A stretch of 64,000 nt of DNA. Source: an uncultured virus (IMG/VR IMGVR_UViG_3300025610_000020). Its lineage: Duplodnaviria > Heunggongvirae > Uroviricota > Caudoviricetes. Below are positions 72-26,942 of the stretch, in pieces. Positions within the stretch are counted from its first letter, which is position 1. Each line of letters begins with the position of its first letter. The stretch lies in IMG/VR virus record IMGVR_UViG_3300025610_000020; one strand, written 5' to 3'. The position numbers were made by a program, and so were the translations under genes. The notes beneath the pieces are model-generated. The model did no database searches, was not told the DNA's origin, and saw only the letters and a list, made by a program, of their open reading frames with translations.

Positions 72-236
72 TTACTTAACGTAAGTACGACCACGATAGC
101 AGAAAGTGCCGTGAGTTTCCTCATTTGCATGACATACATCATACTCAACACCACGATAAGAAGTGTGGAGAATTTGTGCGTCATGTAGAGCAGCAGCTTT
201 ATCAATCTGCTTTTTGATCATTTGAAGTGTGTTCAT
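72..236 (-). CDS. DUF4278-like small protein (54 aa, two YRG motifs)
   Basis: Manual translation MNTLQMIKKQIDKAAALHDAQILHTSYRGVEYDVCHANEETHGTFCYRGRTYVK; AGGAG SD at 243-247; YRG motifs typical of DUF4278. Confidence 0.75.
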   Translation of the reverse strand: MNTLQMIKKQIDKAAALHDAQILHTSYRGVEYDVCHANEETHGTFCYRGRTYVK

Positions 237-295
237 GATTGACTCCTGAAAAAATGGAAAGTTAACCTTCTCTGCCGTAGCAGGATCCGTTTTCC

Positions 296-541
296 CGTTC
301 CTTCAGTCGTTTGCGTCCTATTTCTTGAGACACTTAAGCGCCATATGACGACCAAACAAATTAGACAAGACTCTTTTCTTGTTTTTTTCAGGAATATCAG
401 ATTCCATTACGGTCTCTGCTATTTCCCTAACTTGAACACAAGTTAGGTTTGGTTGTCGTAAATTCGCCATAAGAAAAAGTTCAATCATAGGATGAACGCT
501 CCGTTCCGCGACTTACTTGCGTCTGGTTTCCCAGATGAACG
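296..541 (-). promoter_or_regulatory. tandem glutamine-riboswitch-like aptamers (glnA/Downstream-peptide class); second aptamer interrupted by an ORF
   Basis: Aptamer 1 (541-502): CGUUC-A-UCUGG-GAAA-CCAGA-CGCAAGUAAGUCGCG-GAACG. Aptamer 2 (498-296): CGUUC-A-UCCUAU...AUAGGA-CGCAAACGACUGAAG-GAACG. Lies upstream of a DUF4278-like gene. Confidence 0.7.
318..488 (-). CDS. 56-aa hypothetical protein nested in aptamer P2 loop
   Basis: Open frame ATG 486-488 to TAG 318-320: MIELFLMANLRQPNLTCVQVREIAETVMESDIPEKNKKRVLSNLFGRHMALKCLKK. Confidence 0.6.
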   Translation of the reverse strand: MIELFLMANLRQPNLTCVQVREIAETVMESDIPEKNKKRVLSNLFGRHMALKCLKK

Positions 542-549
542 ACAGGCCT

Positions 550-579
550 ATTATAGACCCTCATACCTTATTTAGTCAA
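550..579 (-). promoter_or_regulatory. sigma70-type promoter driving the riboswitch leader
   Basis: TTGACT (579-574), 18-bp spacer, TATAAT (555-550), a few nt before aptamer 1. Confidence 0.6.
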
Positions 580-767
580 CCCATGTCGAAATTCTCTGAT
601 TCTTCGATCAAACGGTCGATTATGGTGTTTTTACCACTCAACTTTTCAATGGCATGGAGATTAGATTTTTGGTATTTCTTCAATTTCTTGTATTTCTTCA
701 CCAAACGGGTAAGATCCTGTTTTGGAATCTCAATGTCAATGTTGTCAATATCAAATCCTTTAGTCAT
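576..767 (-). CDS. hypothetical protein
   Basis: ORF track, 63 aa, co-oriented. Confidence 0.6.
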   Translation of the reverse strand: MTKGFDIDNIDIEIPKQDLTRLVKKYKKLKKYQKSNLHAIEKLSGKNTIIDRLIEESENFDMG

Positions 768-834: not shown

Positions 835-1485
835 CTAAATTTGGTTTTGGACCTCTTTCCAATCCTTGTCAAAGATCTCTAAACCCTTATCGGTTAGAAT
901 GTGATCATACATCTGATCAAATACCTTAGGTGGCATCGTGCAGATCTGAGCACCATTATACCAAGAACGAATCGCACGTTGAACACTACGAATTGATGCA
1001 GAAAGAACCTGAGTCTTTACTCCATGAATACGATAGAGTTCAGAGATGGAACGTACAACCTCAAGACCAGCAACAGACTGATCATCAAGACGGCCAACGA
1101 ATGGCGAAACATAAGTCGCACCAGCCTTAGCGGCAAGAACTGCCTGAGCAGCACTAAAGATGAGAGTTACATTGACCTTGATGTTTTGATCAGAAAGTGA
1201 TTTACAAACAGCAAGTCCTTCACGGGTACAAGGTACTTTAATTGTGGCAACATTACCAAACTTTTCATAAAGGCGTTTACCCTCACAATACATTTGGCCT
1301 TCATCGCCAACAACTTCCATACTGATATCTTTGATGCCAATATCTTTGATTTCTTGATAGACATCTTCTGGATTTTTACCACTTTTCATAATCAGAGTTG
1401 GATTAGTGGTGACACCATCAATCAAACCAGTTCGATAATAATGATTGATTAATTCTGTATCTGCTGTATCAAGAAAAATTTTCAT
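835..1485 (-). CDS. talC: transaldolase TalC
   Basis: MKIFLDTAD, GVTTNPTL, IKVP, YVSPFVGRLDD, SASIRS motifs; start taken at MKIFLD. Confidence 0.97.
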   Translation of the reverse strand: MKIFLDTADTELINHYYRTGLIDGVTTNPTLIMKSGKNPEDVYQEIKDIGIKDISMEVVGDEGQMYCEGKRLYEKFGNVATIKVPCTREGLAVCKSLSDQNIKVNVTLIFSAAQAVLAAKAGATYVSPFVGRLDDQSVAGLEVVRSISELYRIHGVKTQVLSASIRSVQRAIRSWYNGAQICTMPPKVFDQMYDHILTDKGLEIFDKDWKEVQNQI

Positions 1486-1524
1486 ATAATTGTGCGTGTA
1501 CTTCATGGGGGAAAAATTATAACA

Positions 1525-5599: not shown

Positions 5600-5690
5600 C
5601 CAGTTATTAGTATTTCCGTGCCACCCTCCGGCTCGGATATTAGAGACGTGATTTAGACTCCCTAGAGGTCTCGGTTTACGGAGAGTTTAC
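5600..5690 (-). ncRNA. PhotoRC-II-like structured psbA leader RNA
   Basis: GAGAC...GUCUC stem followed by UCCG...GAGGGU...CGGA hairpin in the psbA 5' UTR; resembles the cyanophage psbA leader motif as recalled; boundaries approximate. Confidence 0.6.
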
Positions 5691-5734
5691 AATAGATTAA
5701 AAAACGTTACGTTTCTTAACCCATTGACTTATTT

Positions 5735-26622: not shown

Positions 26623-26696
26623 AGCCAACTAACGGACTTGAACCGTTGACCTGAGCTTTACAAAAACCCTGCTCTATCCAGCTGAGCTAAGTTGGC
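26623..26696 (-). tRNA. tRNA-Thr(UGU)
   Basis: Cloverleaf GCCAACU...AGUUGGC, anticodon loop UUUGUAA, GUUCAA T-loop. Confidence 0.92.
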
Positions 26697-26699
26697 ATA

Positions 26700-26772
26700 C
26701 TCCTCCACCAAGACTCGAACTTGGAACCCCAGAGTTAACAGCTCCGTGCTCTGCCAATTGAGCTATAGAGGA
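26700..26772 (-). tRNA. tRNA-Asn(GUU)
   Basis: UCCUCUA...UGGAGGA, loop CUGUUAA, GUUCGA. Confidence 0.93.
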
Positions 26773-26791
26773 ATAAAATCCCCGAAGGGAA

Positions 26792-26863
26792 AGCGGAGTA
26801 TCGGAATCGAACCGACGACATCTAACTTGGAAGGATAGCGTTCTACCGCTGAACTAACTCCGC
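26792..26863 (-). tRNA. tRNA-Gly(UCC)
   Basis: GCGGAGU...ACUCCGC, loop CUUCCAA, GUUCGA. Confidence 0.93.
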
Positions 26864-26867
26864 GAGG

Positions 26868-26942
26868 CAGGCAAGGAGGGACTCGAACCCCCGACCAACG
26901 CATTAGAAGTGCGTGGCTCTAATCCAACTGAGCTACTTGCCC
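26868..26942 (-). tRNA. tRNA-Arg(UCU)
   Basis: GGGCAAG...CUUGCCU, loop CUUCUAA, GUUCGA. Confidence 0.93.

Follow-up and report, generated by a model that had tools for sequence, protein, structure and literature searches.

What becomes of a riboswitch aptamer when one of its hairpins holds a complete protein gene, and how is such an RNA to be folded? The question is raised by a leader in the uncultured virus record IMGVR_UViG_3300025610_000020, from which a stretch of 64,000 nucleotides, here called the window, was analyzed. The window is T4-like cyanophage DNA from the ocean, and all features described below lie on its minus strand. The promoter-proximal leader (543–296) carries two glutamine-aptamer-like units. 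Unit 1 (541–502) consists of CGUUCA (541–536), the hairpin UCUGG-GAAA-CCAGA (535–522), CGCAAGUAAGUCGC, and GGAACG (507–502), followed by GAG. Unit 2 (498–296) consists of CGUUCA (498–493), UCCUAU (492–487), 165 nt, AUAGGA (321–316), and CGCAAACGACUGAAGGAACG down to position 296. A preliminary description had read these units as tandem aptamers sharing CGUUCA...GGAACG words, the first with a compact P2 hairpin and the second with P2 strands about 165 nt apart around a complete 56-codon open reading frame (ORF). Reading of the minus strand confirmed the shared words, the compact hairpin, and the enclosed ORF (318..488), as well as the placement of its AUG (488–486) in the 5′ strand and its UAG (320–318) in the 3′ strand, and the extension by DAND up to the UGA of the aptamer (305–303) that readthrough would give. 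The simple tandem arrangement was not upheld. Here, we propose as the more probable reading that the leader is an interlocked glutamine riboswitch, off by default, that encloses a nested gene and competes with its translation.

Relatives were collected by scanning viral contigs for the 3′ half-site, which gave at least 120 loci, and six annotated phages and the window were added. Among the matches listed, 187 units were parsed (162 unique), and the unit counts below refer to these. An alignment of 50 sequences (A1) was used for the tests of invariance and helix pairing. In the proposed fold, one type-1 glutamine aptamer would be built from two interlocked, half-degenerate copies. P1 would be formed by CGUUC (541–537) and GAACG (300–296); the column of the 5′ strand with junction A536 (536..541) is invariant in 50/50 aligned sequences. 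P2 would be the hairpin at 522..535, read directly from the sequence. It is followed by J2/3, CGCAAGUA (514..521), which contains AGUA, is aligned with CGGAAGUA in the Rfam consensus for Glutamine, and is invariant in the alignment. P3 would join AGUCG (509..513) to CGACU (309–305), the latter lying with CGCAAA (315–310) in a segment (305..315) overlapped by the UGA. J3/1, GAAG (304–301), and the 3′ strand of P1 (together 296..304) are likewise invariant and align in relatives to GAAGGAACG of the Rfam consensus. We take the AGUA of J2/3 and the GAAG of J3/1 to be the two E-loop halves of the known glutamine aptamer motif. P3 would enclose two side hairpins. P3a (506–494) lies in the inner hairpin GGAACG-GAG-CGUUCA (493..507), whose loop and closing G make up GGAG (502–499). 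P3b pairs UCCUAU (487..492), overlapping the AUG, with AUAGGA (316..321), containing the UAG, and its 165-nt loop is the nested gene. The P1, P2, and P3 elements of RF01739 (CGUUC/GAACG, a covarying hairpin, and a helix, respectively) and its two junctions are all present in the window, and the junctions are brought together only in the interlocked fold.

The fold is supported by the Rfam scores of 20 natural relatives, 11 with a compact second unit and nine with an ORF-bearing one, which were used in place of loop-deleted sequences. Seven of the 11 compact relatives exceeded the gathering score of 35 bits for Glutamine (RF01739), at 43.6, 43.6, 41.4, 41.0, 40.3, 40.2, and 38.4 bits, whereas none of the nine ORF-bearing relatives reached it. 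Each match above gathering is a single aptamer across both units. Its P1 joins the first CGUUC to the last GAACG, its P2 corresponds to the first hairpin, and its P3 holds an insert of 38–39 nt; CGCAAGUA serves as J2/3 and GAAG as J3/1. Because one aptamer spans both units, the nested ORF sits in a side hairpin of P3. A plain tandem, in which two independent glutamine aptamers stand side by side, each with its own P1, and the ORF occupies the P2 loop of the second, has single-unit scores in its favor. Compact second units alone gave 30.1–34.1 bits for Glutamine and up to 34.0 bits for Glutamine-II (RF01704; gathering score, 33), and first units alone gave 23.6–29.1 bits for Glutamine, with one at 35.7 bits for Glutamine-II. 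Nevertheless, no single unit has both the AGUA of J2/3 and the GAAG of J3/1. The interlocked reading scores 4–13 bits more than the tandem, and only this fold matches the full RF01739 consensus above its gathering score.

Sequence comparison and folding point the same way. The strands of P3, one from each unit, are perfectly complementary (5/5 pairs) in 177/177 unique elements, with AGUCG/CGACU in 170, the double change AGUCA/UGACU in four, and GGUCG/CGACU in three. The inner linker from GGAACG to CGUUCA is 3–4 nt long in 98 of 99 unique cases; this fits a hairpin, since a hairpin loop requires such a length, and is unneeded by two independent aptamers. In constrained folding, the interlocked structure was more stable than the tandem by 0.8–6.4 kcal/mol in 16/16 elements. 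In the window, the local helix of the tandem, P1a, is indeed predicted with a higher pair probability (0.10) than the long-range P1 (0.00). In addition, the first unit of two relatives, L091 and L146, is self-contained, with a mini-P3 of its own (AGCCGACUCGG), and scores 35.1 bits for Glutamine. These first units may be intermediates between the plain tandem and the interlocked arrangement. L091 (46–372) has three consecutive units, the middle one holding a gene. Taking both sides together, we regard the plain tandem as improbable. Strand exchange between the interlocked and the tandem forms is possible. The preliminary interpretation thus holds in that a selected gene lies in a hairpin of a glutamine-type aptamer, and falls short in that this hairpin is better taken as a branch inside P3 than as P2 in a separate second aptamer.

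The gene-in-aptamer layout is widely conserved in ocean cyanophages and occurs in hundreds of related phages. Units come in two forms, with a compact hairpin of 11–47 nt or an ORF-bearing one of 140–249 nt. The unique first units comprise 53 compact and 22 ORF-bearing forms, and the unique second units seven and 80, respectively. The window's type, compact followed by ORF-bearing, accounts for 44 of the 71 unique two-unit elements; six are compact in both units, 19 are ORF-bearing in both (an example is syn9, with gp196 and gp197), and two have the ORF-bearing form first and the compact form second. The nested genes of relatives are complete, have 49–75 codons, and occupy one or two hairpin loops. 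In every parsed ORF, the AUG lies 9–11 nt past the C of CGUUCA. Their stop codon has one of two positions: it lies inside the 3′ strand or, for most second units, 13 nt beyond that, at the UGA or UAA of the aptamer, and the aptamer core then reads as ...W-D-A-N-D-stop.

The helices that enclose the genes are maintained. In the 80 unique ORF-bearing second units, P3b pairs 1–4 are paired throughout, so that at least four closing pairs are kept, and pairs 5, 6, and 7 are paired in 67, 41, and 36 units. Pair 4 is C-G in 55, U-A in 16, U-G in seven, and A-U in two, and unpaired in none; the window has the U-A version, which accompanies UAG instead of the usual UGG. On the A1 alignment, 92.7% of the P3b and P3 positions are paired, compared with 26–43% when the partner strand is slid by 1–3 columns, and the covariation score was reached by 0/500 shuffles; pairing of P3b and P3 therefore exceeds chance. 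The P2 of the first unit covaries as well: the 53 unique compact first units contain 28 distinct 5-bp stems, with pairs 1–5 paired in 42–53 of 44–53. In other phages, the first-unit P2 encloses a 65–66-codon gene (syn9 gp196).

Searches with the proteins alone removed the ascertainment by RNA pattern. The gp196-like search found 419 IMG/VR loci, the best 80 of which reduce to 68 unique loci. CGUU[CG]A lies within 14 nt upstream of the AUG in 68/68 of these, and the exact 3′ half is present in 60/68. The other eight comprise three variant 3′ halves, two loci cut by their end, and three 79-codon forms. The latter (L181, L192, and L194) have no usual 3′ half past the stop codon; they apparently continue into the small ORF that follows. 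Across the 60 loci, the stop codon changes together with the 5′ strand (UAA/UCUUA in 21, UGA/UCUCA in nine, and UAG/UCC in 26), and P2 pair 3 is paired in 60/60. The gp197-like search found 288 IMG/VR loci; the best 80 reduce to 44 unique loci, and both aptamer halves flank 43/43 of the complete ones.

Is the nested ORF a gene? The analysis of the ratio of nonsynonymous to synonymous substitution rates (dN/dS; Nei-Gojobori), proposed in the preliminary description, gave a positive answer: coding selection is present, and the nested ORF is a real gene with a dN/dS of about 0.2. Medians were taken only over pairs with a finite dS above 0.05. In the window's own family (n = 5), the proportion of nonsynonymous differences (pN) was below that of synonymous differences (pS) in 10/10 pairs, and the median dN/dS was 0.21 (six pairs). 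The corresponding values were 1479/1485 and 0.27 (995 pairs) for the 53–56-residue family (n = 55), 28/28 and 0.19 (24 pairs) for the 64-residue family (n = 8), and 105/105 and 0.19 (63 pairs) for the 65–66-residue gp196 family (n = 15). Third codon positions are the most variable in the nested ORFs. All nested-ORF families share a hydrophobic N terminus and two Cys residues approximately 35–37 residues apart (C17 and C53, conserved, in the window's protein). The nested protein is predicted to be a small fold of four helices (predicted local distance difference test score, 75). No family was found for it in Pfam or PHROG, its model had no match in the PDB at E ≤ 0.001 by Foldseek, and nothing above 0.77 was found in the protein atlas. 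The window's nested-gene family is rare, with three phage isolates and three protein clusters, and six of seven matching phage records have no annotated feature at the gene. A protein with 88% identity, P0002, has Gln at the position of the UAG and ends in ...KKQDAND; the longer form ending in DAND therefore exists in nature. None of the four tRNAs found in the window, at 26623–26942 (Thr-tgt, Asn-gtt, Gly-tcc, and Arg-tct), is a suppressor able to read UAG. Within the nested ORF, a 9-bp hairpin, CCUAACUUG-UGUU-CAAGUUAGG (426–447), could draw the ends of the long P3b loop nearer to each other; it is partly retained in phage S-T4, with one double change.

Coding selection leaves the question of why the genes sit inside the aptamer. 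They may be passengers: the riboswitch would control the DUF4278-like gene alone, the loops would be tolerant sites of insertion and swapping by recombination between invariant islands, and the overlap of codons and helices would be genome compaction with no selected coupling. Several observations fit this view. Each hairpin is known in both compact and ORF-bearing form, as the two-unit elements demonstrate, and the same site hosts ORFs of at least four families, with homology between families unsupported by profile comparison (hhalign probabilities of 5.5% and 23.5%). Metatranscriptome contigs link the same islands across 137–150 other letters. In the L288 locus (669–790), an ORF of the window's family has shrunk to a 98-nt remnant (MIELALLA, stop) flanked by the same helix strands, which looks like a nested gene decaying toward the compact form. 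Yet these unrelated-looking families share the AUG offset in every parsed case and end at the same two fixed places, the 3′ strand or the UGA/UAA of the aptamer, which lies in the anti-Shine-Dalgarno (anti-SD) strand described below. A GGAG in the P3a loop is found only where an ORF follows (76/80 ORF-bearing versus 0/10 compact second units). The synonymous sites of WDAND are invariant in 50/50 sequences, whereas third positions elsewhere have an average entropy of 1.39 bits. We therefore consider it rather unlikely that the genes are mere passengers.

What would the interlocked riboswitch control? As stated in the preliminary description, a DUF4278-like gene follows. It has 54 codons (72..236) and is of the syn9 gp198 type, DUF4278/IF17-like. 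The matches to PF14105 are weak and fall short of the cutoff of 25.3 bits (19.0 for the window's protein and 22.9 for syn9 gp198), and those to phrog_545 are strong (E values of 1e-32 and 2e-32, respectively). The expression platform (243..306) places CUGAAGGAA (306–298) opposite UUUUUUCAG (254–246), which overlaps the Shine-Dalgarno sequence AGGAG (247–243) of this gene. In the RNAalifold structure of compact relatives and in the minimum free energy (MFE) structure of the window, CU(G/A)AAG of the aptamer 3′ part pairs with CUU(C/U)AG abutting the Shine-Dalgarno sequence. The variable pair of this anti-SD helix in 75 unique elements is G-C in 34, G-U in 16, A-U in 25, and A-C in none (Fisher p = 2e-9, uncorrected for phylogeny). 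The predicted pair probability of the helix in the window is 0.93–0.98, and in 14/16 elements, the OFF fold differs from the MFE by no more than 0.2 kcal/mol. By default, the aptamer 3′ strand would pair with 254–246 and hide the ribosome-binding site (OFF), and the glutamine-stabilized aptamer would release it (ON), a mechanism like that put forward for the gifB leader of Synechocystis. Since the aptamer 3′ strand covaries with the strand abutting the ribosome-binding site, a switch that is OFF by default and turned ON by glutamine is implied; the ON direction is presumed by analogy, and the cyanophage aptamer presumably binds glutamine.

Some further features of the platform were observed. 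The downstream start AUGAAC (231–236) is complementary to GUUCAU (540–535) of the first P1 strand, and the pairing is seen in folds with a pair probability of 0.12–0.34; as a lead only, it may lock the start codon a second time. The second codon of the downstream gene is AAC in 113 and AAT in eight of 161 unique elements. Between the aptamer and the Shine-Dalgarno sequence of the window lies an optional module, ACGGAUCC-stem-tetraloop-stem-GAGAAGGUUAAC (290–261), with the stem CUGC (283–280)/GCAG (275–272). It is present in 14/65 unique elements (13/56 ORF-bearing, 0/8 compact, and one with an unclassed second unit), and its stems covary (CAGC/GCUG, CUGC/GCAG, CUCG/CGAG, and ACCC/GGGU). Its words resemble the J2/3-P3-J3/1 part of glnA RNA, yet it has no Rfam match.

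How do aptamer folding and translation of the nested gene meet? GGAG, the closing G of P3a with its GAG loop, lies 10 nt ahead of the nested AUG. Coding selection and the association of GGAG with a following ORF support translation of the nested gene. The extent of RNA covered by a ribosome is estimated here from generally known footprint sizes. During initiation, the ribosome would cover P3a, the 5′ strand of P3b, and the P3 edge. At termination, it would cover the 3′ strand of P3b and, in elements of the common WDAND type, also the 3′ strand of P3, J3/1, and the anti-SD strand. In the window's clade, it would reach only the edge of the anti-SD strand because the stop lies 15 nt earlier. Since GGAG, the AUG, and the stop lie in P3a and P3b, a ribosome on the nested ORF must unfold the aptamer, and the folded aptamer buries the AUG; from this geometry, folding and nested translation very likely exclude each other. 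The phage may make regulatory use of this competition. A more specific form, which we put forward tentatively and regard as possible without favoring it, is a three-way toggle. The ligand-bound fold would bury the start codons in P2 and P3b and make the ribosome-binding site of the IF17-like gene accessible; when glutamine is low, ribosomes translating the nested genes would hold the aptamer apart, and in most relatives, ribosomes stopping in the anti-SD strand would set the basal level of the downstream gene.

A number of observations weigh against the proposed reading of the leader. The window has no aptamer match at Rfam gathering scores. At relaxed thresholds, its unit 1 gives only 26.6 bits for RF01739 (gathering score, 35) and 22.6 bits for RF01704 (gathering score, 33), and the split unit 2 has no match at all. 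The identification through Rfam anticipated in the preliminary description thus holds for natural loop-less relatives and not for the intact window. One nucleotide of J2/3 departs from the type-1 consensus, with C in place of G (CGCAAGUA versus CGGAAGUA). P1 and P3a never vary, so that covariation cannot separate the interlocked from the tandem fold; the double changes of P3 are few, being confined to four unique sequences from at least two independent lineages. A passive hairpin role does not explain the strict conservation of the inner copy. P2 pair 4 is an A-A mismatch in 21 UAG-type gp196 loci with UCCAA, and the covariation statistics are uncorrected for phylogeny. In nearest-neighbor folding calculations without ligand or tertiary terms, the aptamer fold of the window lies 9.8 kcal/mol above the OFF fold (0.4–11.3 kcal/mol in 10 ORF-bearing and 2.1–8.1 kcal/mol in six compact elements), and the pair probabilities of P1, P3, and P3b are 0.00–0.07. 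In metatranscriptome contigs from four runs, the summed depth over the conserved islands is high, and parts of the ORF are covered in one run; these contigs fall short of proving transcription because transcript ends are invisible in contigs and carry-over of DNA is possible.

The poor formation of long-range helices across 165–430 nt of translated RNA, to which the low pair probabilities in the window (at most 0.07) attest, would also suit a vestigial sensor: the ORF-bearing aptamer would have lost glutamine binding, and its islands would persist among three cistrons as ribosome-binding and coupling elements or as a site for a protein. In most relatives, a ribosome stopping at the UGA or UAA could by itself open the downstream ribosome-binding site. 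However, all nucleotides of the aptamer core are invariant in ORF-bearing forms, even those with no role as start, stop, or Shine-Dalgarno sequence; P3 and P3b still covary in these elements, and J2/3, P2, and P1 are unnecessary for coupling. Loss of ligand binding is, in our judgment, very unlikely, and an interlocked riboswitch remains the preferred reading.

How does the element compare with known systems? It shares with Glutamine-I (RF01739, glnA RNA) the P1 CGUUC/GAACG, a variable P2, a J2/3 with ...AAGUA, a P3, and the J3/1 GAAG. It differs in that an inner half-copy of the aptamer lies within the phage P3 and J2/3 has C for G, and in that the phage loops hold complete genes, the start and stop codons are helix strands, and the core is read as WDAND-stop. 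In Synechocystis, the available text on the gifB/IF17 leader proposes that glutamine binding melts a helix blocking the ribosome-binding site (Klahn 2018, PMC6212724), and the phage element resembles it as the 5′ leader of a DUF4278/IF17-like gene with a predicted site-hiding helix. glnA RNAs of cyanophages are known as Rfam matches and from phage genome papers, as far as the available parts of the S-CREM1 paper and of PMC6806525 go, and glnA RNAs are reported, in the sources available in part, to occur "in tandem." Glutamine-II (RF01704, Downstream-peptide) of the marine Synechococcus and Prochlorococcus hosts is alike in its CGUUCA, hairpin, CGCA..., and GGAACGG and in its position upstream of short DUF4278-like ORFs (Weinberg 2010; Klahn 2018). 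Its P1 is instead formed as a pseudoknot, the GGAACG being located in a hairpin loop, and its ORF lies downstream rather than inside; with 22.6 bits, the window fails the score of 33 bits for this class.

The nearest precedent found for the nested gene, as far as the available text goes, is the upstream ORF in the B12 aptamer of Mycobacterium tuberculosis metE (Kipkorir 2024, PMC11260477). There, as in the window, an ORF lies within the aptamer boundaries. Translation of the metE ORF is expected to disturb folding and alters downstream expression. Unlike the phage gene, this ORF comprises about 16 codons (+123 to +170), represents no conserved protein family, and is not set in a hairpin loop that its own start and stop codons close; it also belongs to another riboswitch class and another organism (PMC11260477). 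No mention of genes inside a glutamine aptamer or of an interlocked pair was found in the available text of the Melnitz paper, PMC7760959, and PMC2408646, or elsewhere in the literature consulted in part; a remark in Ames and Breaker 2011 or Ren 2015 is possible. Two other comparisons concern regulatory logic in general. Tandem aptamers give sharper responses; the phage units, unlike these, share strands instead of acting side by side. In leader-peptide attenuators, the position of the ribosome on the leader ORF decides the RNA fold; the phage ORFs differ in encoding conserved proteins, not sensing peptides.

The element would belong to a small phage transcription unit (579–72) with its own promoter. 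A sigma-70-type promoter (550..579) consists of TTGACT (579–574), 18 nt, and TATAAT (555–550), with 11/12 matches, and its −10 hexamer ends 8 nt ahead of the first C of the aptamer. The promoter is conserved: among 86 unique upstream regions from relatives, 72 score at least 10/12, and in 67 of those 72, the −10 hexamer ends 7–8 nt before CGUUCA. The stop codon of a 63-codon ORF (576–767; phrog_21512, E = 8e-5) overlaps the −35 hexamer. An NtcA-like GTA-N8-TA[CT] is found in 51/87 unique upstream regions of relatives versus 6% of shuffles; 43 sites are GTA-N8-TAC starting 53–61 nt before CGUUCA, just upstream of the −35 hexamer. In the window (543–612), there is no such box upstream of the −35 hexamer, only a GTA-N8-TAT between the −35 and −10 hexamers. 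The transaldolase gene talC lies at 835..1506, and a PhotoRC-II RNA was detected at 5602–5698 (69.7 bits). The 1.3 kb around the element match 431 phage records, nearly all of Synechococcus, Prochlorococcus, or "Cyanophage" myoviruses, the closest being S-T4 (89.5% identity). A 14-base pattern gave at least 120 matches in genome contigs; among the matches listed, none had the words of the element, and seven had CGTTCA within 300 nt, none aptamer-like, a result uninformative on hosts.

Taken together, the element is real and widely conserved and represents an apparently undescribed variant of glutamine riboswitch, of which the window holds a member with a rare nested family. Riboswitch aptamers are usually treated as compact noncoding leaders, whereas here conserved genes lie inside the hairpins. 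Because the genes sit in aptamer hairpins and part of the core doubles as codons, ligand sensing and translation would physically compete. Threshold-based Rfam scans leave such forms unreported, and riboswitch censuses therefore undercount them. The nested layout suggests a design principle for engineered switches, and the element offers a tractable system for studying long-range RNA folds against ribosome traffic and how a phage reads the nitrogen status of its host. If the three-way toggle is true, the aptamer pieces would be the intergenic regions of a polycistronic mRNA, and host nitrogen status would decide which of two sets of small proteins the phage makes.

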